From Dehalococcoidia bacterium (GTDB taxonomy: Bacteria > Chloroflexota > Dehalococcoidia > Dehalococcoidales > W111), in assembly GCA_011191985.1 (NCBI GenBank), contig DUEU01000002.1, forward strand, positions 11,574 to 75,573: a DNA stretch of 64,000 nt. Reading direction: 5' to 3'. Position numbers and translations under genes: made by a program. Shown here piece by piece: positions 28,601-54,252 of the stretch; positions within the stretch are counted from its first letter, which is position 1, and every line of letters begins with the position of its first letter. Under the pieces are notes generated by a model. That model did no database searches, was not told the origin of the DNA, and saw only the letters and a program-made list of their open reading frames with translations.

Positions 28601-28733
28601 GGAGCAGATGCCGGACCTGATGCCCAAGGTAATGGACAACCTCATGCCGCATATGATTGGCGATGTGGTCCCGCTGGTGATTCAGCCAATGATAGATTAC
28701 TTGCGAGGAAGCCCCCGAGCTGACAATGGGTAA
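25644..28733 (+). CDS. Fusion oxidoreductase: FAD-linked oxidase (GlcD/D-lactate DH-like), 2x[4Fe-4S] ferredoxin, two CCG domains (GlcF/HdrD-like) and a Met-rich C-terminal tail
   Basis: FAD_binding_4-like ALTPRGSASAGYGG. Cys clusters CSQCGYCVHEC and CTTCELCNLRC. CCG motifs NCCGTP and HCCGS. In the last ~129 aa I count 23 Met. Confidence 0.85.
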   Translation: MGISSKKLRNDLQKMFENCVSFSRLERKLYGHDIAAMPGLVKPFVGNTVPGAVVQPQTEDELVELVKWAGQNGVALTPRGSASAGYGGVLPVRGGVVVDFYRLRAIKSVDKEKQMVTVEPGIVWEKLDKELMKQGLTLRLYPSSYPSATVGGWLAQGGAGIGSFEAGWFRENVLSARVVMPDGSVREFRGDDLDLVSSAEGITGLISEVTLRIKPLEDLEVVAIGCPDAYDLQKMAQEIIEKKLPIWSLVFINPRMAELKNKAPLLEHFEFPVEERVLLPASYIMTLAFRKKDSKAVVDGLTEVMKPCQAELLSERIAEHEWKNRFKIMIVKRLGPSLVPAEVVIPLSSLGDVMAEIEEKIDQPVVKEGVVIREGASGEPEVVILGFIPSDQRRFSYNFVFALSLTVMKIAEKHGGRAYATGLYFAGKAKKIMGGDILSRLKDFKKRVDPKGILNPGKVVNGGAVGGFMSIAQAFEPLIRPLGNRVATRIGERPTRPVRGIPADVAWYAYGCSQCGYCVHECDQFYGRGWESQSPRGKWYWLREYMEGREEWDQFMVDTILVCTTCELCNLRCSASLPIEPSWMKLRGQLIDEEKKMTFPPFEMMAASLNKEGDIWAAYRRNRTDWFPKELWEKHGPSHKAKVAYFAGCTASHVETDIPIAAVRLLDAAGVDFTYAGNKENCCGTPMLVAGKWDVFVETMKKNIAAIKEVGADTVVTSCPACDMMWRQIYPRWAEKLGIDYGIEGKHYSELITDKVKSGEFAFPDSGKKQAVTFHDSCHISRVSSVYDAPRDMIKAIPGVTLKEMEHNREWAHCCGSVLTLIKEPPVAAEIGKSRMDEAVATGAEKLLALCPCCEFQFRVTAEKKNIPIETIDLARFAAETMGYELPDPKPEVQKQWAVFEEMIALMTPAGFAQLMGTMWPELIDAMPLGMGKMMRFMGKIPGSLELMKPLFPVLFPRLLPMMMPKVMPVMLERVGERIPMPDYMREQMPDLMPKVMDNLMPHMIGDVVPLVIQPMIDYLRGSPRADNG

Positions 28734-28798
28734 ACTTATTATCGGCAACGGGAATGCAGAGTATTTTTGGTTCATACTTAATGGGAAGGGAGTGAAAG

Positions 28799-28993
28799 AT
28801 GCCAATTTACGAATACAAGTGTCGAAACTGTAATGAGAAATTTGAAGTTCGTCGCAATCTCCAAGATGAAGAAAAAGAGGTAAAGTGCCCCCGATGTGAG
28901 AGCCGCGACACGCAAAGGGTGTTTTCTCTCTTCAGTAGCGGTTCCTCAGGCAATTTATGCCCGCCAGCACCGTCACGTTTTGGCTTCGGCTGA
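28799..28993 (+). CDS. FmdB-family zinc-ribbon protein
   Basis: MPIYEYKCRNCNEKFEV...CPRCES, i.e. two CxxC pairs and the typical YEY.C start. Confidence 0.7.
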   Translation: MPIYEYKCRNCNEKFEVRRNLQDEEKEVKCPRCESRDTQRVFSLFSSGSSGNLCPPAPSRFGFG

Positions 28994-29398
28994 GGTTGAT
29001 CTGCAGGGAGTGGTTCACTTCAAATAACCCTTCTATTTTTAAATTTGGCAGCAGACAGGTTACCGCTACCTCGGTCCTCTTTTCGTCTCGAAGGCGAGTA
29101 GGTACAACCACAGGCAGTAAAGAACTCACGGGCATTAATACCGAGCACTCGCGTATCATAACTACGATAGTAATCGCTATCAACGCTTTCGGGCAGGGGA
29201 ATATTAACAATATAGTCTTTTCCCGCGAGTGAGATGTTATACTGTCTTGTCGATAAGCAGTCCTGGCTTTATGCCTTTATGGGGGCAGATTAACTTACCG
29301 AATGCTATAATAGGTGTTATAAGTTAATAAATAGTGGTAATAGCTTTTGCGTATGTTAGCATGTTAGTATAAGGACACCCGAATTAATGGGGTGACGT

Positions 29399-31612
29399 AT
29401 GCCAGAAGTAATCAAGAAATCGCACTGTCACTGGTGCCATAACGGGTGTTCTGTTCAGGTTGTAGTCAGGGATGGCCGCCTGATTAAAATTGAAGAGAAC
29501 AAGGATCATCCTGGAGCTGAGATGATCCGTCGTACCGTAGCGTCCTGTTCTAAGGCGCGTAATGCTGCCGAGTTCTACCATCACCCTGGCCGGCTAAACT
29601 ATCCACTCAAGAGGGTTGGCGAACGTGGCGAGGGTAAATGGCAGGAGATCGCCTGGGAGCAGGCGCTCGATGAGATAGCTGGCAGACTTAAGGAGATAAA
29701 GGAGAAATATGGGGCTGAGGCAGTGGGCACCAGCTCTGGCACTGGAAGGACCTTCGATGAATACCGAATACGCTTTTTTAATCTGTTTGGTAGCCCAAAC
29801 AATTGGGGTCAGGGACATATTTGCTATGGCCCGTCCAATATGACAGCCCTGGCAACTACAGGCTATTCTGGTATGGGGTCGTCACCAACTCCAGACACCA
29901 AGTGCTGCCTAATGATTGGTAATAACCCCGAGCAGTCCTGGAGAAGAACCTGGTTTCACATACTGGATTTTAAGAAAAGGGGGGGCAAGCTTGTTGTTGT
30001 TGACCCCAGACGCACCAGGCCAGCAGAGTTTGCTGATATATGGTTACAGCTTAGACCGGGAACAGATGCTGCCCTTCTGCTGGGTATGATAAATACCATA
30101 ATTAGTGAGGGACTCTATGATAAGGAATTCGTCGAAAAATATTGTTACGGCTTCGACAAGCTGGCTGAGCGGGCTCGGGAATATCCGCTGGATAAAGTGG
30201 CCGGGATAACCCGGCTACCCGAGGAGGACATCAGACAGGCAGCGATAATGTACGCAGCGAATAAACCGGCGGTAATCTTGGCCATGGAAGGGCTGGAACA
30301 CAGCCCCAACTGTATAGAGGCCATTCATTGCCGGTACATCCTGCCCGCTATCACGGGCAATTTTAATATCAAGGGTGGTGAGAAGCTTCGTGCCGTCAAG
30401 AGCAAATTGAGGACGGAATATGAGATTTCGCTCCATGACATGGTGCCTTCTGAGCAAAAGGCCAAGCAGATTGGCTCTGACCGCTTCAAGCTCGAAGCCT
30501 TCCCCGGATATGACCTTTGTATGAATTACAGTAAGGCAAAGGTAGCTCGGGACCACGTTTGTTTTGCTCATGCTGGCATGTGCTACGAGGCGATGATTAC
30601 TGGCCAGCCCTACCCTATAAAGGCAGTGATAACCCTTTCCAGTAATCCCTTGGTAACCCAGGCCAATACCAAAAAAGTATATAAGGCATTAAAGAACCTT
30701 GACCTATACGTGGTTATGGATTACTGGATGACGCCATGTGCTGAAATCGCCGACTATGTTCTGCCTGGCGCCAATTGGCTGGAGAGGGAAGACCTGTTCA
30801 ACGTTTGGGATGCCTTTCCTAACATTGACGTTGGTGAAGTAGCCATGCCTCCCAGAGTAGCCGGTAAACATGACCGTAGGACTGACTATGATTTGTGGCG
30901 CGGTCTTGGTTTGAGACTGGGACAGGAGGAATACTGGCCGTGGCAGAACCTGGGGGAAGCTCTAAACTGGCGACTGGAACCCTTAGGCCCTACTATTTCC
31001 GATATTATCACCAAATATGGTAGTTATATTAAACCGTCTCAGGAGGAGTACGGCGGGTTGGAGTTTGGGACCCCTACAGGAAAATGTGAGCTATATTCCA
31101 CAGTATTTGAAAAGCTCGGTTATGATCCACTACCACGCTTTTACGAGGCGGCGGAGAGTCCGGTGAGTAATCCTGAACTGGCCAAGGAATACCCTTTTAT
31201 CCTGATTACGGGGGGTAGACATCTTCCCTTCTTTCACTCAGAGCATCGTCAAGTAGACTCCCTACGCCTAGAACATCCTGACCCCGTAGTCCAGGTTAAT
31301 CCAGGGACAGCCGCCGAGCTGGGTATTGAAAATGATGACTGGATTTGGATAGAGAGCCCTCGAGGACGAGTCCGGCAAAAATGCCGCTATTTTGATGGTA
31401 TCGCGCCAGATGTCGTTCACGCCCAACACGGCTGGTGGTTCCCTGAGTTGCCCGGCGAGGAACCATGGCTACATGGTGTCTGGGAATCGAACATCAATGT
31501 CCTCACTTGCGATGATGCGGACTACTGCAATCCTATCAATGGCGGATGGCCGCTCAGGACCCTGATGTGCAAGATTTATAAGTGCCATGTCTACGAGGAA
31601 TCTAAAAAGTAG
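29399..31612 (+). CDS. Cytoplasmic molybdopterin/tungstopterin (bis-MGD, DMSO-reductase superfamily) enzyme, acetylene-hydratase-like subgroup suspected
   Basis: N-terminal FeS motif CHWCHNGC...C. No Tat signal. Candidate metal-ligand Cys in GHICYGP. LVVVDPRRT and LRPGTDAALLLGMIN are typical of the family. Confidence 0.85.
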   Translation: MPEVIKKSHCHWCHNGCSVQVVVRDGRLIKIEENKDHPGAEMIRRTVASCSKARNAAEFYHHPGRLNYPLKRVGERGEGKWQEIAWEQALDEIAGRLKEIKEKYGAEAVGTSSGTGRTFDEYRIRFFNLFGSPNNWGQGHICYGPSNMTALATTGYSGMGSSPTPDTKCCLMIGNNPEQSWRRTWFHILDFKKRGGKLVVVDPRRTRPAEFADIWLQLRPGTDAALLLGMINTIISEGLYDKEFVEKYCYGFDKLAERAREYPLDKVAGITRLPEEDIRQAAIMYAANKPAVILAMEGLEHSPNCIEAIHCRYILPAITGNFNIKGGEKLRAVKSKLRTEYEISLHDMVPSEQKAKQIGSDRFKLEAFPGYDLCMNYSKAKVARDHVCFAHAGMCYEAMITGQPYPIKAVITLSSNPLVTQANTKKVYKALKNLDLYVVMDYWMTPCAEIADYVLPGANWLEREDLFNVWDAFPNIDVGEVAMPPRVAGKHDRRTDYDLWRGLGLRLGQEEYWPWQNLGEALNWRLEPLGPTISDIITKYGSYIKPSQEEYGGLEFGTPTGKCELYSTVFEKLGYDPLPRFYEAAESPVSNPELAKEYPFILITGGRHLPFFHSEHRQVDSLRLEHPDPVVQVNPGTAAELGIENDDWIWIESPRGRVRQKCRYFDGIAPDVVHAQHGWWFPELPGEEPWLHGVWESNINVLTCDDADYCNPINGGWPLRTLMCKIYKCHVYEESKK

Positions 31613-31633
31613 CCGGAAAGGTAAGGTGATACC

Positions 31634-33895
31634 GTGTCTAAAGAGTATCGACATATAGGAAAAGCAACACCGCGGAAGGACGCCCGGGAAATTGTCACGG
31701 GAAAGGCACAGTATATTGATGATATAACGGTACCCAATATGCTCTATGGCAAGATTCTGGGTAGTCCTTATCCCCATGCCAGAATCAAGCATATCGATAC
31801 CGGCAGAGCCGAGGCTTATCCCGGCGTTAAAGCCGTGCTCACCTACCAGGATGCCCCCGACTGGAGGATAGGCACGCCCCGCCACAGACGTTGTCTTGAC
31901 AGCACGTTACATTTCGTGGGCGACGCGGTCGCTTTAGTAGCTGCCGAAACCGCGGAGATCGCCGAGGACGCTCTGGGACTGATAGAAGTGGAATACGAAC
32001 AGCTGCCGGCCGTCTATGACGTCGAGGAAGCCCTGAAACCTGATTCGCCTCAAGTATGTGCTGAATTCCCGGGTAACCTTATCCCACCCGGCGCCTACGG
32101 ACTCGGCCCTAAAGCCCTGCAACAAGTTGTTATGGGTGATGTAGAGCAGGGATTCAAAGAGGCTGACTTTATCGTGGAAGGAACGTGTCTTTATGATAAC
32201 ATCCCCAACCCCCTGCCTCCGGAACCTCCCGGAGTAATAGCTTTCTGGGAAGGGCCCGAAAAAATAACCATCTGGATGGCATCACAGTCCGTACCTATAG
32301 GCAAGACCTTCCTACTGCCGGCACTAGGGCTTATCGATATACGAATTATCGGCACTCATTGCGGTGGTAGCTACGGAACCAAGAACGCCAATCAAATTCT
32401 TGTTCTCTACGCTGCGGCACTGGCAAAGGCAACGGGTAGGCCGGTCAAAGTATATTACACAAAGGAAGAGCACTTTAATACCTTCACGCTACGATTAGGG
32501 TCCCGTATCCGAGGTAAGGTAGGGATGAAAAAAGACGGAACGGTGACAGCACTGGAAGGTGAGTGGTTCGTTGATACCGGCGCCGCTTCAGAATCATCAC
32601 CCCAGCAGGTTGCCGTCGGTTGTGGTGAAGTACAGATCGTGGTCAGGTGTCCGAACTGGAACCTGAAACCCAGCCTTGTATGTACCAACCGGAACCCTTC
32701 AGGGTGCGTTAGGGGTTTTGGTGGACAGGAGCTCAAGAGTGCCTTCCTGCCGGTCTTGGGAATGGCTATGGAAAAGGCTGATATCGATCCGTTAGAGTTT
32801 TTCAAGAAAAACTATGTTAAGGCTGGTGATGGGTTCTATTGGCGGAACGGTGTCTGGGCAGAATTCAGAGGACCGGACTATTCAAAAGCAATGGAGAAAG
32901 GTGCTGAGGTCTTTGGGTGGAAAGATAAGTGGCAGGGGTGGGGCAAACCGACGGCCGTTAATGGCACAAAGAAGGTAGGGGTCGGGGTTGGGGTACATGG
33001 TAACGCCGATGTCGGTGAAGATGAGTCTGAGGCATATGTACGATTAACCCCCGACGGCAGGGCCGTGATACATGCCTGCGTATCCGAGTCTGGGCCGGGG
33101 CAGAGGAGCAGTGTCTGCAAAATGGCCGCCGAAGTTTTGAATTTGCCCCTGGAAAGTGTCAACATAACACCCCCGGATACATCGTTAAACCCGTTTGATT
33201 TCGGGCTTGTTGGCTCGCGGGGAACTTACATTTTAGGGGCAGCGGTCATAGCCGCCGCCGAGGACGCCAAGCACAAGCTGTTTGAGCTTGCTGCCCCTGT
33301 ACTTGGGGCAAAGCCTGAAGCTTTGGAGACTAAAGATGGGCAGATATACGTAGCGAACAACCCGAGTAAAAAGATACCGTGGCGGCGAGCAACAGGCCAC
33401 CAGCGCACGTGTACCGGTCAGGGGCGCTGTGTGGAGGACTTTACTTTACCTAATATGATGATGATATTTACCGAAGTTGAAGTAGATACCGAGACAGGGA
33501 AAACGGAATTACTACGCATCGTTGCCACTACCGACTGCGGTCAAATTATAGACCCACTTGTTCTTCAGGGTCAGCTTCACGGCGCTCTAGGGGCGGCGGG
33601 AACAGATACCGCTGTTTTTGAGATATCAGTTTTGGACAAGAACATAGGACGTTTACTGAACGGCAACATGATAGACTACAAATGGCGCACATTTGCTGAC
33701 CTGCCCGAATTTAGGACCGTAATTCTGGAGACACCTTTTCCGAGCCACCGCTTTCATGCCATAGGAGTTGGCGAGGTAGCCACCGCACCGGGACCATCCG
33801 CCGTACTCATGGCAGTATACAATGCAATCGGTACCAGAATAATGTCTTATCCCGTGACTCCGGATAAAATCCTTAAGGCTTTGGGTAGAATATAA
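31634..33895 (+). CDS. Xanthine dehydrogenase / aldehyde oxidase / CoxL-family molybdopterin-binding large subunit
   Basis: GTG start 21 nt after the upstream stop. Hammerhead region GKAQYIDDI..LYGKILGSPYPHARI. Also GGSYGTK and the C-terminal AIGVGEVATAP. Confidence 0.85.
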   Translation: MSKEYRHIGKATPRKDAREIVTGKAQYIDDITVPNMLYGKILGSPYPHARIKHIDTGRAEAYPGVKAVLTYQDAPDWRIGTPRHRRCLDSTLHFVGDAVALVAAETAEIAEDALGLIEVEYEQLPAVYDVEEALKPDSPQVCAEFPGNLIPPGAYGLGPKALQQVVMGDVEQGFKEADFIVEGTCLYDNIPNPLPPEPPGVIAFWEGPEKITIWMASQSVPIGKTFLLPALGLIDIRIIGTHCGGSYGTKNANQILVLYAAALAKATGRPVKVYYTKEEHFNTFTLRLGSRIRGKVGMKKDGTVTALEGEWFVDTGAASESSPQQVAVGCGEVQIVVRCPNWNLKPSLVCTNRNPSGCVRGFGGQELKSAFLPVLGMAMEKADIDPLEFFKKNYVKAGDGFYWRNGVWAEFRGPDYSKAMEKGAEVFGWKDKWQGWGKPTAVNGTKKVGVGVGVHGNADVGEDESEAYVRLTPDGRAVIHACVSESGPGQRSSVCKMAAEVLNLPLESVNITPPDTSLNPFDFGLVGSRGTYILGAAVIAAAEDAKHKLFELAAPVLGAKPEALETKDGQIYVANNPSKKIPWRRATGHQRTCTGQGRCVEDFTLPNMMMIFTEVEVDTETGKTELLRIVATTDCGQIIDPLVLQGQLHGALGAAGTDTAVFEISVLDKNIGRLLNGNMIDYKWRTFADLPEFRTVILETPFPSHRFHAIGVGEVATAPGPSAVLMAVYNAIGTRIMSYPVTPDKILKALGRI

Positions 33896-41063: not shown

Positions 41064-42830
41064 GTGTCTGGAGTTGATCCAATTACCTTTGCTGTCGTTC
41101 GAAATAAGTTAATCTCAATTGCTAATGGTATGCTAGAGACCGCGTTCGGCTGTGGAGTGACTACTTTTATGTATGAAATCAGGGACTGTTCCTTTGGGAT
41201 TCTTGATGCCGAATGTGGTATTGTCGCGCAATCTGATGGAATTCCTCTTTTTGCCGGTAGCCTAGGTCCGGCTACCAAGAATTGTGTTGACGTTATTGGC
41301 AAGGAAAACCTGGAACCCGGCGACATAGTAATATCGACGGCGCCCGATGTTACCGGCAACCACACTTCTGATGCCATACTGTTTGCCCCTATTTTCTATC
41401 AAGGCCGGCTGTTTGGCTACGCCGCCACCAAGGCACACTGGATAGACCTCGGTGCCAAGAGCACCTACCCGGCCGATGCCACCAATATCTATGAAGAGGG
41501 CCTGCGCATCCCCCCGGTCAAGTACTACCGGAAAGGTAAGCTGCAATCAGCCATCTGGGAGATTATTAAGTGGAATTCAAGGGCCCCTGACCAGGTATGG
41601 GGAGACCAGCAGGCCCAGATTGCCGGCTGTCATTTTGCCGAAAGGCAGGTAACAGAGCTGCTGGACAAATACGGGGTCGAAACCATAGAGGCCTGTATCG
41701 GGGAGATATACGACCACAGTGAGCGCATCACCCGGCTGGCCATTGAAGCCATGCCTGATGGCACGTGGTCGGCCGAAGACTATATAGATGACAACGGCAT
41801 TGATCTAGATAAACTGGTGCCAATTAAAGTAACAGTAACGATTGAAGGAAGCGATATCACCATAGACCTCTCCGGCTCAGCCCCGGAGCAACGGGGGCCA
41901 ATGAACGGTTTATGGGTCACCACCCTATCCGCCGCCAGAATGGCGGTTAAGGCATTGACCACTCCGGAGCTACCGGCAAACGAAGGCTCCAATAGACCGG
42001 TTAAAGTAATAGCGCCCAAAGGCAGTGTGTATAATGCTGGCCCCACAGTACCATCTTTCCTGTGTGCTGACGTAGCCTCGGCGATGCTGGAACTGATCAA
42101 CAAAGCATTAAGTCGCGTGCTGCCAGAAAAAGTTCCCGCGTGTTCCGGAGGTCATCCAGGGGGGAGTGGCTGTTTCGGGGTAGATCCCAAAACAGGGAGG
42201 TACTGGGGAACTATCATACCGGCTATAATTGGACAGGGAGCTGACTTTTTTGCCGACGGTGAAAATTACCTCATGTATCATGCTTGTGGCGGCGGCCAGA
42301 ATATCCCTACCGAGATATTAGAATCAACATTTCCTCTATTTGTCGAAAAGAACGAACTGGTTCAGGATAGCGGCGGGGCTGGAAAGCATAGAGGAGGTCT
42401 GGCTTCCAGGATTCAAATTAGGCTTCTCGCCCCCGCCACCTATTATGGCTATATAGAAAAGGCGAAAACTCCGCATTGGGGTATTGATGGTGGCAAAGAA
42501 GGCCTTAGAAATTACGCATTAATTAAGTCAAAAGACAGAGGAGAATTCAAGGTGCTGAAGACTTCGGGCGTGCCACTGGCCGAAGGTGATAGAGTGATTA
42601 TCACGGCTGGTTGTGGAGGAGGATACGGGGACCCGTTGGAAAGAGACCCTGAAGCGGTGCACTGGGATGTTATCAACGGCTATGTATCGGTTGAGCATGC
42701 CAGGCAGGATTACGGGGTGGTCATTGACCCACAGACACTTGAGGTTGATTTGAAAGCTACGAAAAGATTAAGGGGCGTTTACAATGGTACCTCAGTAATT
42801 ACGCGTGTACCCCTGCCCGGTTCTGATTGA
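41064..42830 (+). CDS. Hydantoinase B / oxoprolinase / acetone-carboxylase-alpha family protein
   Basis: GTG start. DPITFAVVRNKLISIANGM is typical of the Hydantoinase_B N-terminus. 588 aa. No HyuA-type partner in the window. Confidence 0.85.
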   Translation: MSGVDPITFAVVRNKLISIANGMLETAFGCGVTTFMYEIRDCSFGILDAECGIVAQSDGIPLFAGSLGPATKNCVDVIGKENLEPGDIVISTAPDVTGNHTSDAILFAPIFYQGRLFGYAATKAHWIDLGAKSTYPADATNIYEEGLRIPPVKYYRKGKLQSAIWEIIKWNSRAPDQVWGDQQAQIAGCHFAERQVTELLDKYGVETIEACIGEIYDHSERITRLAIEAMPDGTWSAEDYIDDNGIDLDKLVPIKVTVTIEGSDITIDLSGSAPEQRGPMNGLWVTTLSAARMAVKALTTPELPANEGSNRPVKVIAPKGSVYNAGPTVPSFLCADVASAMLELINKALSRVLPEKVPACSGGHPGGSGCFGVDPKTGRYWGTIIPAIIGQGADFFADGENYLMYHACGGGQNIPTEILESTFPLFVEKNELVQDSGGAGKHRGGLASRIQIRLLAPATYYGYIEKAKTPHWGIDGGKEGLRNYALIKSKDRGEFKVLKTSGVPLAEGDRVIITAGCGGGYGDPLERDPEAVHWDVINGYVSVEHARQDYGVVIDPQTLEVDLKATKRLRGVYNGTSVITRVPLPGSD

Positions 42831-44236
42831 ATGTCTATATAACCATTAACTAAGTGAGCTCGCTCATACATCCCGATAATACCCAGCTTACCAGTGCCAG
42901 CCAGGTCTCCTGTCCGATTTGGTAACTCAAAGCCTTTGCCGTTATCGCTTATAGTCATTCTGACCTTGCCGCTCTCGAATTCGAGTTTGACGGTAGCTAT
43001 AGACGCCCCGGAATGTCTTCTAATATTACTCAATGCCTCCTGCCCGATTCGGAAGAGTAGCAGTTGCGTCTCCATGGGCAAGGTGTGCTTGGTACCCGTG
43101 ACATCAACATGGGTAGCAATGCCCTGATTTTTTACCATGTCCTCTGCCATCCACTCAAGGGCAGCTTCCAGGCCAAGGTCATCCAAGATACGGGGGCTTA
43201 GGTCTTGAGCACAGCGTCTCAGGCCTTCTAATGCTACCACGGCCTGGCTACGCAGGTCCTCGAGGCCCTCCTTGAGGGCACGGCTTAATTTTGGCCTGGT
43301 GATTAGTGCCAGCGCGTCCAGGCGTTGGATGAGCAGGAGCAGAGATGGAGATACATCGTCGTGCAACTCGCGAGCAATGCGCTTTCTTTCCTCCTCTTGT
43401 GCCCTGGTGATAAGTTGGACGTAAAAGTGCATATTATCCTGCAGTTGTTTCTCTTCGGTTATGTCCTGTAAGGTTTCTATGGCCGCTATTAGCTCGCCTC
43501 GTTCGCTCTCGATAGGACTTGCCGTAAAACGAAGCCATTTCCCATCCTTACCGAGAGATGCGAAGAAATCTTTGGCTTCATAGGCGCCATCTATCAGGCG
43601 GGATTTCTGGTATTTACCCTGGTAATGCTCCTCAATCTTGTCTGCGGATGCCCCTTCCACAATTAAATCGGCCATGGTTGGTCTTTTCTCTTTATAAAAT
43701 GCCTGCCAATGCCTATCTGTACCGAGTACTTCCTGACTACCTACGCCAGAAAGGGATTCGATGGCGGTATTCCAGTGGGTGACCCTGTGTTGTCTGTCGA
43801 TTACAAATGTGGCAATAGGTGAACCATCGATAATATTTGAGAGCATCTCCTCCGCACGCTTTTCTTCAGTTACATCTCTAGCGACATGTTGAAATCCCGT
43901 TAGCTCTCCATTGATGATGACGGGGCTGGTGGCCATCTTCACAATCCGAGCCGTTCCATCCTTTAGAATGAATTGCTGCTCGTAGGGCTGCTCGACCTCT
44001 TCTCCGTTTAGCAATTTTTGGCGAACTTCCCTAGCCTGGGCCAGAGATTCATCACTAAGGAACTCGGTAATACTCTTGCCGATCCATTCCTCCAGCGTAT
44101 ATCCGCTGAGCTTTTCAAATGCCTTGTTTCCGTCGAGGAAAGTACCCCTTCTGTCGTGAACCCACATGGCGTCACTGGCATTCTCAAAAAGGTATCGATA
44201 GTCTTGCTCAGTCAGCTCAATCCCTTTTTCCATCAA
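42779..44236 (-). CDS. Cytoplasmic PAS-domain sensor histidine kinase (HisKA_3/NarX-type)
   Basis: No TM segment. Multiple PAS-like repeats. H-box RIARELHDDVSPSL and HATPase C-terminus GTRVITEVPL. The stop overlaps the convergent HyuB-like gene by 52 nt. Confidence 0.9.
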   Translation of the reverse strand: MMEKGIELTEQDYRYLFENASDAMWVHDRRGTFLDGNKAFEKLSGYTLEEWIGKSITEFLSDESLAQAREVRQKLLNGEEVEQPYEQQFILKDGTARIVKMATSPVIINGELTGFQHVARDVTEEKRAEEMLSNIIDGSPIATFVIDRQHRVTHWNTAIESLSGVGSQEVLGTDRHWQAFYKEKRPTMADLIVEGASADKIEEHYQGKYQKSRLIDGAYEAKDFFASLGKDGKWLRFTASPIESERGELIAAIETLQDITEEKQLQDNMHFYVQLITRAQEEERKRIARELHDDVSPSLLLLIQRLDALALITRPKLSRALKEGLEDLRSQAVVALEGLRRCAQDLSPRILDDLGLEAALEWMAEDMVKNQGIATHVDVTGTKHTLPMETQLLLFRIGQEALSNIRRHSGASIATVKLEFESGKVRMTISDNGKGFELPNRTGDLAGTGKLGIIGMYERAHLVNGYIDIQSEPGRGTRVITEVPL

Positions 44237-44916
44237 CGCCCTTCCATCTCGCCGCTAGGTATGTCATCAAGGGCGATGTAGCCTTCCCTCAGCCCTTTGA
44301 CTATCGCATCGGTGCGGCCGCTACAACCCATTTTGTTAAAAATGTTGGTCAGGTGGGCTTTCACTGTGCGCAGACTGAGAAATAGGACATTGGCGATATC
44401 CCTGTTGCTCATTCCGTTGGCGGCTAACCTGAGAATCTCAATTTCCCGGGCGGTTAGTAGGTCACTGGCTTTGCCTTCAGCAGTTACCCCCTCAGCGCTT
44501 ACTACGCGTTCTAAAAGCTTACGGGTTACCGTCGGGTCAAGCACGGACTCGCCGGAACGCGCCGCGCGGATGGCTCCTATAATCTCGCTACCACGGGTGC
44601 TTTTCAGTAAATAGCCGCAGGCTCCAGCCTCCAGAAGTCCAAGAATGTAGCGGATGTCGCTATAGGCAGTCAATACAAATATAGAGGTAGTCGGGCTTGA
44701 TTGCTTGATCAACTTGGCCGCCTCAACCCCGCTAAGTTTGGGCATGACGATGTCCAATATAACTACATCTGGGCTCAGCTCACGCGCCAATCTAACCGCC
44801 TCTTCACCATCACCCGCCTCACCAACCACTTCAAAATCCTTTTCCCCCTCAAGCAGACTGCGCATGCCTTCCCGTAATACCGCATGGTCATCGGCAATTA
44901 GAATCCTTGTTTTCAC
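44233..44916 (-). CDS. NarL/LuxR-family response regulator
   Basis: Receiver motifs ILIADDH and LDIVMPKLSG. LuxR HTH: LTAREIEILRLAANGMSNRDIANVLFLSLRTVKAHLTNIF. Confidence 0.9.
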   Translation of the reverse strand: MKTRILIADDHAVLREGMRSLLEGEKDFEVVGEAGDGEEAVRLARELSPDVVILDIVMPKLSGVEAAKLIKQSSPTTSIFVLTAYSDIRYILGLLEAGACGYLLKSTRGSEIIGAIRAARSGESVLDPTVTRKLLERVVSAEGVTAEGKASDLLTAREIEILRLAANGMSNRDIANVLFLSLRTVKAHLTNIFNKMGCSGRTDAIVKGLREGYIALDDIPSGEMEGR

Positions 44917-45140
44917 TGTTGAGTCTTACTTCCTTATTATCGGACGTAGCGCTACTTACTTAATTCTAGACTATTGAGAGAATAAACTCAATGGCTCCTT
45001 GGGACGGACCTAAAGATATAGGACTTTAGGGCATATCAAGGTTTGCCCTTTAGGCACCTGAAAACGAGAAATCAGGTCGATGTGTAATCTCCTCATAAGG
45101 AGTATTCTATAAATGGAATGATGAACAGGAGGTGGTAACG

Positions 45141-45428
45141 ATGTTGAAAGTAGCCGTCGTGGAGAGAGAGCCCATCACTTATGGGGAAAGACTGAAAGGG
45201 AAAGAGGCCATCTTGGCAGTACTGGCCAGGGCCGCTGACGACAGCCAGTTCTTAGCTCAACTAGCTGATAACCCCACTGAGGCACTCAGCGGATATTATA
45301 CGTTGAGTCAGGAGGAGTTGGCGGCGCTGGTAAGTGGCGATATAAAGAAAATAGAAGAGTGGGTTGGTAAGCTAGATAAGCGGCATGCAACCTGGCTGTG
45401 GTGCCGGTTGAGCCAGGAGAAGTGGTGA
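45141..45428 (+). CDS. Small helical protein, paralogous to the C-terminal module of the downstream channel (LigA-subunit/NHLP-like motif)
   Basis: ATG at 45141, 8 nt after AGGAGG. 95 aa ending RLSQEKW. Aligns with residues ~375-461 of the next CDS. Confidence 0.6.
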   Translation: MLKVAVVEREPITYGERLKGKEAILAVLARAADDSQFLAQLADNPTEALSGYYTLSQEELAALVSGDIKKIEEWVGKLDKRHATWLWCRLSQEKW

Positions 45429-45464
45429 ACATAACCCCCAAATCAATATAAGTGGAGATGGATT

Positions 45465-46850
45465 ATGGAAACCAGGTCTGAGACGACAGGGAAGGATCCG
45501 GAAACTCCTATTGTCAATGACGAGCATCGCGGCCGGGGGCTTGATTTTTTAGCCCAGGTGTTGAGAGTTCGCGAGGAGGCAATCGAGACTACCGCTCGGC
45601 TTGAGACTGCCATTGACAGAATAGGGAAGCTGGCCATCGCTGATGCCCATCCTCCGGCTGCCGTGGCGGAGAGGACCGAAGCGGTAGGGGTAACCAAGGG
45701 CAAACTTAATATCCTGAACACAATACTCCTGGGGATTTTAGCTGGTGTTTTCATTGGGCTGGGGGCAATGTTTTGCACTGTGGTTACTACCGATGCTGGG
45801 CTTGGCTTCGGCCTCACTAAGCTGTTGGGTGGTCTGGTGTTCTGTCTCGGCCTTATTCTTGTGGTTCTGGCTGGGGCTGAGCTTTTTACCGGTAATTGCC
45901 TGATAGTTATGAGCTGGCTGAGTGGTCGGACTCCCTTCACTCATTTGCTCCGCAACTGGGGTTTAGTCTATGTCGCTAACCTCGCCGGGGCTTTGAGTTT
46001 GGTGGGGTTGATGTTCTACGCTAACCAGTGGGCATTTAATGGCTACGGAGTAGGTGCCAATGCTCTGCTCATCGCCAATGCCAAGGTGAACCTCTCCTTC
46101 GGGGCAGCCCTGGCTCGAGGCATCCTGTGTAACGCCCTGGTATGTTTGGCTATCTGGTTATGTTTCAGCGCGCGTACTGTTACGGATAAGATACTCGCTA
46201 TCCTGTTCCCCATTACCGCCTTTGTTGCTGCTGGGTTTGAGCACAGCATCGCCAATATGTACTTCATTCCTATGGGAATGCTGCTGGCAGACCAGCCGGC
46301 TGTCCTCAGCGCCGCCGGCATTACGGTTGAAGGTGTGGCAAATCTTTCCTGGTCGGGCTTTGTGGGCAATCTGGTTCCCGTGACGCTGGGCAATATTATT
46401 GGCGGTGGCATCTTGATAGGTGCTGTCTATTGGCTGACTTACCTGCGCAAGGAACGAGCCACAGAACTGGTTGCCGCTAGACCCTGGGTGAAAACAGTTA
46501 TCCCACCTTTACGTCGTATCAAGCTTGAGGAGCCAGCTCCAGTTCCGCTAACGGAACCTATTCGCCTCCAGATAGAGGAGCTTATCCGTGCCAAGGTAGA
46601 GGAACCAGCTATGCTTGACAGGGGTGGTAAGGCACTGTTAGCGGTGCTGGCCAAGGCCAGAGATGATAGCGGTTTCCTGGCAAAACTGGCTGAAAACCCT
46701 GCTGAAGTACTTAAAGACTACGACTTGACCACCGAGGAGAGGGCAGCTCTGTCAAGTGGGGATATTCGGTGGGTGGAGTCCAAGCTCGGGACCGTGGATG
46801 AACCACTCCGAACCTGGCTGACGGCCAGATTATCTCAGGAAAAATGGTAG
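45465..46850 (+). CDS. Formate/nitrite transporter (FNT) family channel with N- and C-terminal cytoplasmic extensions
   Basis: FNT motifs: GAELFTGN, GFEHSIANMYFIP. There is a ~75-aa N-terminal extension and a ~120-aa C-terminal extension ending RLSQEKW. Confidence 0.85.
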   Translation: METRSETTGKDPETPIVNDEHRGRGLDFLAQVLRVREEAIETTARLETAIDRIGKLAIADAHPPAAVAERTEAVGVTKGKLNILNTILLGILAGVFIGLGAMFCTVVTTDAGLGFGLTKLLGGLVFCLGLILVVLAGAELFTGNCLIVMSWLSGRTPFTHLLRNWGLVYVANLAGALSLVGLMFYANQWAFNGYGVGANALLIANAKVNLSFGAALARGILCNALVCLAIWLCFSARTVTDKILAILFPITAFVAAGFEHSIANMYFIPMGMLLADQPAVLSAAGITVEGVANLSWSGFVGNLVPVTLGNIIGGGILIGAVYWLTYLRKERATELVAARPWVKTVIPPLRRIKLEEPAPVPLTEPIRLQIEELIRAKVEEPAMLDRGGKALLAVLAKARDDSGFLAKLAENPAEVLKDYDLTTEERAALSSGDIRWVESKLGTVDEPLRTWLTARLSQEKW

Positions 46851-50661: not shown

Positions 50662-52458
50662 TTATATGATTTCCCACTCGCAGTAAGGGTCATCAGCAAC
50701 GATGCACTTAACTTCCCTGACGTGCTGGTTCTTGACCGCTGAGAATAGTCCGTTAAGGAAACCTGTGGTGAAGTAGCATGATGGCTCCTTTATATGGGTG
50801 AACATCTTGGTTCTTATGCTTTCACAGTTTTCCTTTATCCTTATCGTCTCACCCAAGGTGATTTTCCCCACCTTACAGTACTCCATGCAATTTATTACTC
50901 GCTGGATTGCCTCATCATTACTTAATCCGGCTTCTAGTAGGCGCTCGCCGATTTCCTTTCCTGTCCTAGCGCCCCCCATTCTCTGGGCCATTATATACCT
51001 CTTACCAGCCAGATGAGGGAATCCCATACCGTGCATGACCACATGGAGATGGACATCGCTCCCCAGCTTTGGCCTCTCCACGAGAGGTTTCCCATCAAGC
51101 AGAAATGCCATCAGGCGTTCCATCAACCGCTCGTGTATCCTGGCGATAGTGGCGCTGTCCTTTTCCAGAGAGGCCTTCAGCTCGCCGATTTCTCCCGGCA
51201 CGAATTTAAACTCGCAGTAGGGGTCTCCCAGCCCGAGGCACTTTGTCTCGATAGCGTTCCATTCTCGTCTGTCCTTCTCCATTCCCATACAGGTACCGAC
51301 GAGCATAGGCGGGAGATGCGAAGCTGTGGTGGTGCCGATGTTTTCAAATCCGCAGCAGTCAGAGTTCTCGTATACTCGAAAGTAGTGTTCTTCAGTCTTA
51401 GAAGCGTCCGCGAGGTATTCCAGGATGCCGCTGCGCTCTCTGGCTACATTATCGAAAGGACCTATTTTAATCGCTTTTTTCATGTCTTCAACTTTGTTGA
51501 AGTTTTTGGGCATGAATAAGCCAAGCGCTTGAAGAAAAACCAGCATACTGTATCCCAGTCTCATACTCAAAGGGGCGATCGGCATTAGTTCTTTCACTAA
51601 TGAACCTTCCTCTTTGTTTAAGTCATACATCATTGTGGGGAATCCTTTGGGGTCCCAGAGCATGCCGCTCCAGTGGGCAAGATTTGGCCAGAACAGGTTC
51701 ACGAAATTACCGGTCTCCTTTCTCAGGAGCACTTTGTTTTCCCGGAAAGACTGGAAAAACTGCTTTAACGCCACCGGATCCCAGTCTATCGTCGGTTTGA
51801 TTGTCGGTCGGGCTAGTTCCATGGGGACTTCGATACTAGTTGGTCTTACCTTGGGATGCTTCACCACGTTGACAATCCTTGAGTTCTCTTTTGTCTCCAT
51901 TCTGAGGATGCCATCGGCCACGCTCATCATGGCTCCCAGGTCTTCATCCTTACCACAGCCCTCGTCCATTAAAGCTAATACTGAGTTGCCCTCAGAAGCA
52001 AACTTAGATAGGCAGAGCCTTATGAATCGGAACACTTCCTTCTCGTTAAAGAGGTATGGTGATGTCAGAGAATCAAAGGCAAGAAAAACATTGCGCCGGC
52101 CAACTCTTTCTTGCAACTTCGTGATAGCCATACTTATGCTATTCAGGTCTTCACAATTAGCGCCTACGATGTCCGGTCGCTCCATGGTAGCTGCCCCTAC
52201 TGTTTCACCGAAGGCGTCAACGAAACTGAGCGCACCAGGGGGAGGCTCGCCCACGCCTCTTTCTTTTAAAAGGTCGGTGACCTCAGACGGGCCGTGCTCG
52301 GTGGTAACATATATGACTGGCCTGTCCATGGCTAGGCCATTGAGCACCGTTTGATGGCAGAAGGTCGATTTTCCTGCTCCCGGAGGCCCAGCCAGTAAAA
52401 TCAGGTTGCTGCTCGGCACCTCCTGTACTTCTGTCAATGACAATACTCTCTCTCCCAT
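50662..52458 (-). CDS. RecA/KaiC-superfamily ATPase fused to two V4R-like (4-vinyl-reductase/Bet3-like) modules, paralog A
   Basis: ATG at 52458, 8 nt after GGAGGTG. Walker A GPPGAGKSTF and Walker B-like FLAFDSLT. V4R-like C-terminal motifs ETKCLGLGDPYCEFKF and CYFTTGFLNGLFSAVKNQHVREVKCIVADDPYCEWEII. Confidence 0.75.
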   Translation of the reverse strand: MGERVLSLTEVQEVPSSNLILLAGPPGAGKSTFCHQTVLNGLAMDRPVIYVTTEHGPSEVTDLLKERGVGEPPPGALSFVDAFGETVGAATMERPDIVGANCEDLNSISMAITKLQERVGRRNVFLAFDSLTSPYLFNEKEVFRFIRLCLSKFASEGNSVLALMDEGCGKDEDLGAMMSVADGILRMETKENSRIVNVVKHPKVRPTSIEVPMELARPTIKPTIDWDPVALKQFFQSFRENKVLLRKETGNFVNLFWPNLAHWSGMLWDPKGFPTMMYDLNKEEGSLVKELMPIAPLSMRLGYSMLVFLQALGLFMPKNFNKVEDMKKAIKIGPFDNVARERSGILEYLADASKTEEHYFRVYENSDCCGFENIGTTTASHLPPMLVGTCMGMEKDRREWNAIETKCLGLGDPYCEFKFVPGEIGELKASLEKDSATIARIHERLMERLMAFLLDGKPLVERPKLGSDVHLHVVMHGMGFPHLAGKRYIMAQRMGGARTGKEIGERLLEAGLSNDEAIQRVINCMEYCKVGKITLGETIRIKENCESIRTKMFTHIKEPSCYFTTGFLNGLFSAVKNQHVREVKCIVADDPYCEWEII

Positions 52459-52485
52459 CTCATTTTCACCTCCCATAGCAGCAAA

Positions 52486-54252
52486 CTAGATGATCTCCCA
52501 CTCACAGTGCGGGTCTCCAGCTGCAATGCACTTTATTTCCCTGACGCGCTGGCCCTTGACTGTTGAGAATAGCCCGTTTAAAAAGCCGGTGGTGAAGAAG
52601 CATGATGGCTCGAGGGTTCCTATTGTGAAGAGCCTGACCCAGCTGCTTTCGCAGTTATCATTTATCCTTATAGTTTCACCCATTGTAATCTTGCCCACCT
52701 TACAGTGCTCCAGAAAATTGATCACCCGCCTGATTGTCTCATCCTCAATTAATCCGGCTTCGAGCAGGCGTTTACCGATTTCCTTCCCCGATCTGGCACC
52801 TCCCATCCGCAATGCCATTTTGTACCTCTCGCCGCCGGGAGGATGAACACCCATGGCGTGCCAGACTGCGTGTAGTTGGATGTCACTCCCCAAAGTGGGT
52901 CTGACTACAAGGGGTTCGCCATGGAGCAGAAATCCCGTAAGGCGCTCCATCAACCGTTCATGTATCTTTTCGATAACGGAGTTGTCTTTTTCCAGAGAAG
53001 GCTTCAGTTCACTGATTTCTCCTGCCACTAATTTGAACTCGCAGTAGGGGTCTCCCAGCCCGATGCATTTCGTCTCAATGGCATTCCATTCTCTTTCCTT
53101 CTTCTCGAACCCCTTGCAGAAGCCGGCGAAGAGAGGGGGGAGGTGTGAAGCTACGGCGGCGCCTACGTTTTCCAGTCCCCAGCAGTCGGAGCTCTCATAT
53201 ATTCTGAAGTAGTGTTCACTGGGGCTGGAGATATCATCAAGGTATTCTATGATGCCGCTTCGTTCCCAGCGTGCCGTACGGATGTAGGGGGCGCCCCGCT
53301 TTGCTGCCTTTTTCATGACTTTTACGCTTTGGTAATTCCTGGGTAGATAAAGCTTCATGAAGATTCTGGCATACCATGGCCAGATTGACCAGTTTTCCCT
53401 CGACATGGAGCGCGGGTCTTCCTTGTTCAGTTCATAAGTCGTGATCGGGAATCTTTTTGGGTCCCAGAGCATGCCGCTCCAGTGGGCAAGATTCGCCCAG
53501 AACAGATTCACATAATCACCCAGCCCGCTTCTCAGCCCTGCATCACCCCGATTTAACATCGCCCGCCCCCATTTGCCGAGCGTATCCTTGTTGAAGGTCA
53601 TCTCTTGTTGAGAGACCCCGGCATGCTCTGGGACAATGGGGACTTCGAATTTTACCGGCCTCACACTCGGGTGCTTTACCACATTCAAAGTTCTTGAGTT
53701 CTCTACTAGCTCCATCCTGATGATGCCATCAGCCATGCTCATCATAGCTCCCAGGTCTTCCTCTTTTCCGCAGCCCTCGTCAACCAAGGCCAATACCGAA
53801 TTTCCCTCGGAAGCGAACTTCGATAGAAACAGTCTCATGAACTTCACTACCTCCACGCCATTTAAGAGGTAAGGGGAGGTAAGTGAATCGAATACCAGTA
53901 CGGCGCGTTTTGACCCTGTTCTCTCCTTTAGCTTGGTGATAGCGATACTGAGGGTATTCAGGTCGGCGCAGTTGGCATCCTCGGTGTCAGCGCGCTGCAT
54001 GCCGGGGAGCCCTACAGTCTGGGTGAAAGCGTCAACGAAGTTCAAATCGGCGGCCTCTCCCATACCCCTTTCGCTTAGTAGCTCTCTGACTTCAGCAGGG
54101 TTTCGCTCGCTGGTTACGAAGATAACTGGCAAGTCAGCAGCGATACTCTTCAGGACTGTTTGATAGCAGAATGTAGATTTTCCCGCTCCTGGAATCCCAG
54201 TTAACAAAATTAGGCCCTTATCTGTTGGTTCTTGTAACTTGGCCAGTGACAT
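52486..54252 (-). CDS. RecA/KaiC-superfamily ATPase fused to two V4R-like modules, paralog B
   Basis: Walker A GIPGAGKSTF and Walker B-like VLVFDSLT. V4R-like motifs ETKCIGLGDPYCEFKL and CFFTTGFLNGLFSTVKGQRVREIKCIAAGDPHCEWEII. Collinear with paralog A along its whole length. Confidence 0.75.
   Translation of the reverse strand: MSLAKLQEPTDKGLILLTGIPGAGKSTFCYQTVLKSIAADLPVIFVTSERNPAEVRELLSERGMGEAADLNFVDAFTQTVGLPGMQRADTEDANCADLNTLSIAITKLKERTGSKRAVLVFDSLTSPYLLNGVEVVKFMRLFLSKFASEGNSVLALVDEGCGKEEDLGAMMSMADGIIRMELVENSRTLNVVKHPSVRPVKFEVPIVPEHAGVSQQEMTFNKDTLGKWGRAMLNRGDAGLRSGLGDYVNLFWANLAHWSGMLWDPKRFPITTYELNKEDPRSMSRENWSIWPWYARIFMKLYLPRNYQSVKVMKKAAKRGAPYIRTARWERSGIIEYLDDISSPSEHYFRIYESSDCWGLENVGAAVASHLPPLFAGFCKGFEKKEREWNAIETKCIGLGDPYCEFKLVAGEISELKPSLEKDNSVIEKIHERLMERLTGFLLHGEPLVVRPTLGSDIQLHAVWHAMGVHPPGGERYKMALRMGGARSGKEIGKRLLEAGLIEDETIRRVINFLEHCKVGKITMGETIRINDNCESSWVRLFTIGTLEPSCFFTTGFLNGLFSTVKGQRVREIKCIAAGDPHCEWEII

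Follow-up and report, generated by a model that had tools for sequence, protein, structure and literature searches.

Why should a formate/nitrite-family (FNT) channel carry, at the end of its polypeptide, a small helical domain that the preceding gene encodes on its own? The question is raised by two adjacent genes in a 64,000-nucleotide (nt) stretch of the genome of a Dehalococcoidia bacterium (GenBank assembly GCA_011191985.1, contig DUEU01000002.1, positions 11,574 to 75,573 of the forward strand), which is referred to below, at its full length, as the window. The first gene encodes a free-standing protein, and the second an FNT channel whose C-terminal segment is related to it. Judged from sequence comparison and structure modelling, the shared element, here called the module, is a six-helix domain of ~76 residues that belongs to the Os1348/NHLP/LigA-like clan. 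The module is specifically associated with formate dehydrogenase (FDH) genes, FNT genes and two-component signalling. Since the pairing of a free with a tethered copy recurs in FDH operons, the domain looks like an accessory component of formate metabolism in bacteria that has not been described before.

The two open reading frames (ORFs) described in a first-pass annotation of the window are both present, with the predicted lengths of 95 and 461 amino acids (aa). Confidence of the structure models is given as the predicted local distance difference test (pLDDT). The two genes divide as follows:

45141..45428, plus strand: free-standing module protein, 95 aa, with an Os1348-family NHLP/LigA-clan domain at residues ~20-95
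45465-46850, plus strand: FNT channel gene, 461 aa (ORF and PF01226 match)
45465..45662, plus strand: N-terminal cytoplasmic extension of the channel, aa 1-66 (low-pLDDT model; conservation 0.46-0.70)
45663..46445, plus strand: channel core with a FocA-like pore, aa 67-327 (PF01226; conservation 0.89)
46446..46619, plus strand: Pro/Glu-rich linker, aa 328-385 (one predicted helix, 364-379; conservation 0.68)
46620..46850, plus strand: tethered module, aa 386-461 plus the stop codon (match to the free copy; conservation 0.86)

Conservation is expressed here as the mean frequency of the top residue over 45 fusion homologues; by this measure the module comes close to the channel core, and the N-terminal extension ranks lowest. 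As far as these alignments tell, the module is under strong purifying selection.

The free module gene starts with an ATG located 7 nt downstream of AGGAGG, a ribosome-binding site (RBS), and its product has a Cys-type C-terminus, ...TWLWCRLSQEKW-stop. The FNT gene follows after an intergenic gap of 36 nt, with no terminator predicted between the two genes, and its tethered module has an Ala-type C-terminus, ...TWLTARLSQEKW-stop. When small-protein residues 22-98 (counted from an upstream GTG) are aligned with FNT residues 386-461 by BLASTP, 44/77 positions are identical (57%) with 1 gap and E = 7e-24. The similarity noticed in the first-pass annotation therefore survives formal alignment statistics, and the RLSQEKW-stop ending that it pointed out is the terminus common to both proteins; the shared length had been overestimated, since it amounts to 76 residues (nt 46620-46847) and not ~87. 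On the strength of this alignment, the free and tethered modules are homologous.

To which family does the module belong? Against NCBIfam NF038399, the model named 'Os1348 family NHLP clan', the free copy scores 42.8 bits and a paralogue from another locus (L007) 54.6 bits, both above the cutoff of 40, and the tethered copy alone scores 30.4 bits, which is below it. The match to Frankia_peptide (PF14407) is sub-threshold, at 24.3 bits (E = 3.9e-5) against a gathering value of 48, so by sequence the relation is at the clan level only. A profile built on 49 diverse module members matched, in the PDB, Os1348 (6lk7, E = 3.7e-4) and, at E ~5e-3, SonA, a borosin precursor with a LigA domain, and more weakly the alpha subunit of nitrile hydratase (E ~0.09) and the OphMA clasp (E 0.4-0.8). 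Structure prediction with AlphaFold2, which had been proposed as a check, gave for the free module a six-helix bundle with pLDDT 84 (83.9), whose best Foldseek neighbours are Os1348 (template modelling (TM) score 0.50), SonA (0.64/0.73) and the LigA part of DesB (0.67). The ECOD classification now has a 'LigA-like' group in which LigA, NHase_alpha, Frankia_peptide and Nif11 stand together (PMC12353581). Because of this grouping, and by the NF038399 score and the profile matches to Os1348 and SonA, the initial guess of a LigA-like or NHLP-like helical fold turns out to be right.

The family is small, with 334 members in an exhaustive profile search of 1.84 billion representatives, and most of its members are proteins of 75-150 aa with the module at the extreme C-terminus. 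Its hallmark is the tail. Trp is the terminal residue in 101 of the 150 best matches, and the typical end reads W-x-x-x-R-L-x-Q-E-x-W-stop; the diverse alignment has five invariant columns, three of which (W66, Q73 and W76) fall within the last 11 residues, and R70 and E74 are nearly invariant. The pLDDT of the module model drops at this point, and it is plausible that the conserved, possibly flexible tail serves as a contact motif.

The channel itself belongs to the formate/nitrite transporter family. PF01226 matches residues 67-324 with E = 1.3e-74 and 251.1 bits, against a gathering threshold of 34.6, and is covered at positions 2-240 of its 240, which places the protein in the Pfam family. 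The top NCBIfam matches are FocA models, all under their cutoffs (FocA equivalogs TIGR04060, 248.6 vs 290.1, and NF008069, 237.2 vs 440); by sequence the channel is FocA-like, though not assignable as FocA. The pore residues Thr142 (in ELFTGN) and His260 (in FEHSIAN), which we take from the motifs to be the equivalents of FocA T91 and H209, are present and invariant across the 45 homologues. Positions 8-282 of NF008069 align with channel residues 60-330, and relative to E. coli-type FocA the N-terminal extension is thus ~50 aa long, shorter than the ~75 aa first proposed. The model of the full-length channel is of moderate quality (pLDDT 70): residues 1-23 are predicted to be disordered, residues 24-56 form a low-confidence long helix, and a loosely structured linker leads to the six-helix module at 386-457 (pLDDT 75-85). 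Both termini of FNT proteins are cytoplasmic, as established for the family, so that five modules would hang beneath an FNT pentamer.

The fusion is not peculiar to this genome. A survey of FNT homologues listed at least 120 fusion clusters of 433-490 aa, with 69-100% identity and 93-100% coverage to the channel; they come from NCBI, JGI, ENA and Logan assemblies, and all the named ones are Chloroflexota. Co-occurrence with the small gene, which the first-pass annotation had also suggested surveying, was found in 5/5 other loci (L001-L005), where the fusion gene is directly preceded by the small gene and the flanking genes vary. Relatives of the small protein number more than 1,150, and nearly all of the best 120 measure 94-101 aa; the entry identical to it stems from a Dehalococcoidia metagenome-assembled genome. 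In neighbour-joining trees the FNT-tethered modules form one clade with 98.5% bootstrap, and a single clade of all tethered copies, those on FNT and those on FdhA, is unsupported (1.5%). A recent duplication in situ was considered as the origin of the pair and rejected: the FNT-tethered copy groups with its own free neighbour in 0/200 bootstraps, and the two are therefore old paralogues.

With which other genes does the module occur? A genome scan gave 60 further loci from Anaerolineae, Dehalococcoidia, Chloroflexia, Caldilineaceae, Thermoleophilia, Planctomycetota, Deltaproteobacteria (including Syntrophorhabdus and Desulfonema), Clostridia, Aerophobetes, Thermotogae and Bipolaricaulota. The set L012-L071 was retrieved with the pattern CRLQQE[KRI]W and is consequently biased to Cys-type copies. 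Where enough downstream sequence was available, 43 of 51 free copies directly adjoin FDH (31) or FNT (12) genes, and a divergent response regulator gene lies within 1.5 kb of the free module gene in 35/52. Five small paralogues selected by profile instead of the Cys pattern agree with this census in 5/5 context look-ups: their loci have a divergent HisKA_3 kinase and NarL-type regulator, with either NuoE-like, NuoF-like and FdhA genes or an FNT gene downstream.

The NAD-type FDH operons have the order free module, NuoE-like, NuoF-like and FdhA (L007 7001-12971; L009, L028-L064, L075 and L077), and the FdhA of L007 scores 870 bits against TIGR01591, the equivalog model of formate dehydrogenase alpha, whose cutoff is 666 bits. 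In the Dehalococcoidia FDH operons, FdhA itself has a C-terminal module in 23 cases, so that the free-plus-tethered design of the FNT locus is repeated there; the parallel suggests a shared mechanism on channel and enzyme. Of the 28 tethered copies, 25 are preceded within their operon by a free copy. The remaining three are those of L071, for which the upstream sequence is missing, L067, with a truncated free copy, and L024, where a Cys-type module is attached to FNT and there is no free copy.

The fused architectures in which the module was found are the following:

FNT channel with the module
Molydop_binding, the C-terminal domain of molybdopterin oxidoreductases, with the module
module N-terminal to a NuoE-type [2Fe-2S] subunit
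Fer4_22 with two modules in tandem
REC with the module, in four representatives, one of which has two REC domains
MerR-type helix-turn-helix (HTH) domain with two modules in tandem

The proteins that join Fer4_22 or HTH to two modules, and REC or Molydop_binding to one, sit on contigs of 0.9-2.2 kb, too short to reveal their gene neighbours. In modules that lie internally (P0346, P0349, P0241 and P0253) the terminal Trp motif is often degraded.

Some loci show further arrangements. In Planctomycetota (L029 4395-7903) the gene of a sigma-54 NtrC-type activator is followed by that of a REC-module protein (219 aa) and then by a channel with REC at aa 39-149 and FNT at aa 193-452; we know of no description of such a REC-FNT fusion. 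Two loci from Aerophobetes and Clostridia (L055 6866-9850; L060 407-3302) contain a free module, an FNT channel whose C-terminus is fused to a Rex-type, NAD(H)-sensing CoA_binding domain (fusion proteins of 398 and 415 aa) and a Rex repressor, in this order, and L062 is similar by tblastn only. This arrangement suggests redox-coupled control of a formate channel. In L041 (11454-14202) a divergent module (...RWLIKESW) precedes an 801-aa acetyl-CoA synthetase with an N-terminal REC, and in L004 (9397-11382) an ordinary acetyl-CoA synthetase gene directly follows the FNT::module gene; by these neighbours, the reach of the module may extend into acetate metabolism. The REC-FNT, FNT-Rex and REC-acetyl-CoA synthetase loci indicate that the module travels with formate/acetate proteins that bear or adjoin phospho-relay or redox-sensing domains. 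Furthermore, the module adjoins HdrA/MvhD-type (FlpD) electron-bifurcation-like genes in L020 (1069-6621), L065, L066 and L068: in L020 it lies downstream of a 691-aa FdhA-like gene, in L065 beside two CRP-family regulator genes, and the Bipolaricaulota loci L066 and L068 are apparently alike, in arrangement only.

In the window, the module-FNT pair is transcribed divergently from a two-component system:

42779..44236, minus strand: sensor histidine kinase with two PAS domains, HisKA_3 and HATPase_c (Pfam)
44233..44916, minus strand: NarL/GerE-type response regulator, Response_reg plus GerE (Pfam), divergent from the module-FNT pair
44917..45140, no strand assigned: divergent intergenic region with CCTA/TAGG palindromic elements and the RBS AGGAGG

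The Pfam domains bear out the earlier description of this pair as a cytoplasmic PAS-kinase/NarL-type system, and the kinase has no transmembrane segment (the maximum hydropathy value, KD19, is 1.47). A kinase homologous to this one is found at the corresponding place in L001, L004/5 and FDH-type loci; in L002 and L003 no two-component system adjoins the module-FNT pair. Among curated models, kinase and regulator come closest to MctS/MctR, a two-component system for monocarboxylate transport, and to MadR; every score stays far under its cutoff, and a response to small carboxylates is thus only a hint. The intergenic elements lie at ~45007-45056 and consist of GACCTA-N6-TAGGAC followed by TAGGGC and TAGGCA. 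Palindromes of the form GCCTA-N8/9-TAGGCC are found upstream of the FDH-type module genes of L007, L009 and L033, and degenerate forms are present in L001 and L004, which are closely related to the window. The recurrence is suggestive of a candidate operator common to the NarL-type regulators.

Elsewhere in the window, two tandem paralogues of ~600 aa with an N-terminal KaiC-like ATPase and a C-terminal V4R domain are encoded at 50662-54252 (minus strand). A redox cluster at 25644-33895 (plus strand), unlinked to the module, comprises a 1029-aa FAD_binding_4/FAD-oxidase_C/Fe-S/CCG fusion, then, after an unannotated gap of ~660 bp, a molybdopterin oxidoreductase of 737 aa, which lacks the module and shares 27% identity with FdhA, and a molybdenum cofactor protein of the xanthine-dehydrogenase type. 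No Rfam RNA family was found anywhere in the window.

What, then, might the module do? The reading that we prefer, with a probability of about one half, is that it is a cytoplasmic docking or regulatory domain for the handling of formate (small carboxylates), whose free copy pairs with the tethered copy. The free module is encoded by the first gene of FNT-channel and NAD-type FDH operons, usually under a divergent HisKA_3/NarL pair, and in Dehalococcoidia a second copy is attached to the C-terminus of the last protein of the operon, FNT or FdhA. According to this proposal, each protomer of the FNT pentamer would display one tethered module on a flexible linker of ~58 residues, on the cytoplasmic side since both FNT termini are located there. 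The free copy would bind the tethered one as a heterodimer modelled on the Os1348 homodimer; indeed, that this prototype is homodimeric is the reason why the pairing seems probable. At the channel mouth, the complex could regulate the passage of formate or couple the channel to partner or signalling proteins, by analogy with FocA, whose cytoplasmic N-terminal helix is the site where PflB acts, and the same pairing on FdhA could modulate its activity or connect it to partners.

We infer the docking role from four considerations: the prototype dimerises, tandem copies occur, members of the clan engage proteins, and FocA needs a cytoplasmic partner. The dimerisation of free and tethered copies and its effect on gating are likewise drawn by analogy. 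The context is in favour of docking or gating as well, through the REC and HTH fusions, the REC-FNT and FNT-Rex fusions and the homodimeric prototype. With these analogies, the original suggestion of a gating or partner-docking domain with a soluble copy as competitor or adaptor is plausible.

Several observations weigh against this proposal. The Foldseek matches of the module are individually non-significant (E > 1). In most lineages the free copy has no tethered counterpart: FNT is unfused in Anaerolineae, Clostridia and Aerophobetes, and L017, L025 and L027 have FDH without the fusion, so that the tethered copy cannot be the primary partner of the free one. Since no FDH operon lies within the window, a coupling of channel and enzyme cannot be argued locally. 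Moreover, the strict division of Cys-type free and Ala-type tethered copies, which holds in the Dehalococcoidia operons, is partly circular: the residue before R-L-x-Q-E-x-W is Cys in 61/62 free and Ala in 26/28 tethered copies of the operon loci, a Cys figure obtained on a set retrieved with a Cys-containing pattern. Among 100 unbiased representatives ending in Trp, 54 have Cys at this place; the division is therefore a feature of the lineage and not a rule of the family, and the idea of a Cys universal in free copies was withdrawn.

The leading rival, possible if on the whole unlikely, turns on a common third partner. Instead of binding each other, both modules would bind one and the same protein, which may be the real target: a subunit of FDH, for instance, or the regulator or the cytoplasmic PAS/GAF HisKA_3 kinase. 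The tethered copy would recruit this partner to the channel or enzyme and the free copy compete for it, thereby linking flux through channel or enzyme to transcription by a co-sensor logic. Such a partner switch would account for the free copies that lack tethered ones in most phyla and for the near-constancy of the divergent HisKA_3/NarL pair. It is also consistent with the REC-module and HTH-module fusions, which put the domain inside signalling proteins, and with the module-NuoE and FdhA-module fusions, which suggest contact with the FDH complex. It is harder to reconcile with L002 and L003, whose module-FNT pairs have no adjacent two-component system, and with the fact that self-association is the only documented contact of the prototype.

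More speculative, and rather unlikely as a whole, is the idea that the module represents a new family of small adaptor or signal-transduction proteins, with a function in formate metabolism like that of PII/GlnK for ammonium. Its free form might dock reversibly on FNT channels and on the FdhA/NuoE complex, through the tethered copies or directly, by means of its invariant, flexible QExW-COOH tail, and might also communicate with the adjacent cytoplasmic HisKA_3 kinase and NarL regulator. If this were true, one protein would coordinate the transport and oxidation of formate with transcription, and the REC-module, REC-FNT and FNT-Rex proteins would be alternative wirings of one control circuit.

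It is doubtful that the module is a structural or assembly subunit, which would stabilise oligomers and aid FDH maturation or cofactor insertion, or the assembly of the FNT pentamer, with no part in regulation. Small accessory subunits of this kind exist, as FdsD does in NAD-type FDH, and the module is fused to catalytic and electron-transfer subunits (at the C-terminus of FdhA, at the N-terminus of NuoE and in the Fer4_22 protein) and always co-transcribed, as the 36-nt gap free of predicted terminators illustrates. However, it is difficult to picture one assembly factor at work on a soluble Mo/Fe-S enzyme as well as on a membrane channel that has no cofactor, and the REC, HTH, REC-FNT and FNT-Rex contexts indicate signalling. 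In sequence comparison with Pfam at E <= 0.1, the module matched neither FdsD nor any other FDH accessory family, Frankia_peptide being the only hit.

A role as small-molecule or redox sensor, by which the domain would bind formate or respond to redox state through the conserved Cys and the SGD...E...R..QE.W residues and pass the signal on to the attached protein, seems improbable. The polar conserved residues do cluster in the C-terminal helix and tail, Cys is conserved in the free copies of FDH and FNT operons, and the domain adjoins NADH-sensing Rex-like domains. Yet 46 of the 100 unbiased representatives lack the Cys, as do nearly all tethered copies, and a 76-residue helical bundle offers no obvious pocket; we know of no ligand-binding member of the clan.

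The name of NF038399 and the weak PF14407 match raise the question of whether the small protein is an NHLP-type, leader-bearing precursor of a peptide made by ribosomes and modified after translation (RiPP), as has been proposed for Os1348 in Pseudomonas, with the channel domain as decoy or immunity element, the more so as the prototype Os1348 adjoins GNAT, HEXXH and SagB-like genes. This is very improbable. The small protein reaches no further than the domain itself, and neither a GG site nor a core peptide is present; it is conserved from end to end, without a hypervariable core; and enzymes, channels and regulators all carry the domain as a fusion. Maturase genes (YcaO, radical SAM, LanM, peptidase/exporter) were found neither in the window nor as a conserved neighbour across ~75 loci. 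The RiPP precursor was accordingly rejected, and the automated RiPP/NHLP-like label on such genes can lead to false RiPP calls in genome mining. Finally, there is next to no chance that the similarity is fortuitous or the fusion an artefact of assembly or frameshift, which the alignment statistics, the strong purifying selection on the module and the recurrence of at least 120 independent fusion clusters of constant length, across assemblies from four data sources, refute.

FNT channels, the NHLP/LigA clan and the NCBI pipeline name for such proteins are already known. In the literature searched, no paper links this domain family to formate dehydrogenase or FNT channels, and the formate link, the FNT::module and FdhA::module fusions, the free-plus-tethered design, REC-FNT and FNT-Rex appear to be undescribed there. 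Most members of a family that automated annotation labels as RiPP/NHLP-like are connected with formate channels and formate dehydrogenase. How cytoplasmic partners control the opening, closing and direction of FNT channels has been studied almost entirely in FocA-PflB of E. coli. In the natural system described here the cytoplasmic domain is folded, can be separated genetically and has a soluble paralogue, which makes partner-dependent control directly testable. The system is widespread, occurring in Dehalococcoidia and, with other wirings, in Anaerolineae, Planctomycetota, Clostridia and Aerophobetes, and it has relevance for metabolic models of subsurface Chloroflexota, in which formate is a key substrate.

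How does the pair compare with known systems? Os1348, 85 aa long, is encoded in a putative bacteriocin cluster of Pseudomonas sp. Os17 and affects antibiotic activity, and in the crystal it forms a stable homodimer through helices 1, 4, 5 and 6, with its last six residues disordered (PMC7726476). Like the module, it is a small six-helix protein of NF038399, and its disordered end resembles the low-pLDDT tail seen here. The differences lie in its neighbours, which are GNAT, HEXXH-peptidase and SagB-like genes in place of FDH and FNT operons, and in the fact that the proteins described here have a conserved RLxQExW-stop ending and also exist as parts of channels, enzymes and regulators; in addition, the modelled fold superposes only loosely on 6lk7, as the TM score above indicates. 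More generally, NHLP folds are surfaces for protein-protein engagement or regulatory subunits (PMC12455567). The NHLP/Nif11/LigA-like domains (proteusin leaders, SonA, LigA of LigAB and the OphMA clasp) belong to the same helical clan as the module, whose partners are a membrane channel and a molybdoenzyme instead of RiPP maturases or a dioxygenase.

Among channels, the closest comparison is FocA, which needs a cytoplasmic partner on its N-terminal helix (PMC11841067). Both systems have a FocA-type pore and a cytoplasmic element attached to the channel as the likely point of control by a soluble protein. In E. coli these are a short N-terminal helix and PflB, whereas here they would be a folded C-terminal domain and its free paralogue, and no pflB gene occurs near the module-FNT locus.

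GlnK, the small soluble regulator encoded beside the AmtB channel, binds the cytoplasmic face of its channel and talks to a two-component system. The likeness to the present locus is a functional analogy only: GlnK has an unrelated fold, and what the two have in common is the operon logic of a small soluble protein with a channel and the link to a kinase/regulator pair. Nearer to the present fusion stand the REC-FNT channel of L029 and the FNT::Rex-like channels of L055 and L060, in which an FNT protein likewise has an extra cytoplasmic domain and an adjacent module gene, with another domain appended and at another terminus.

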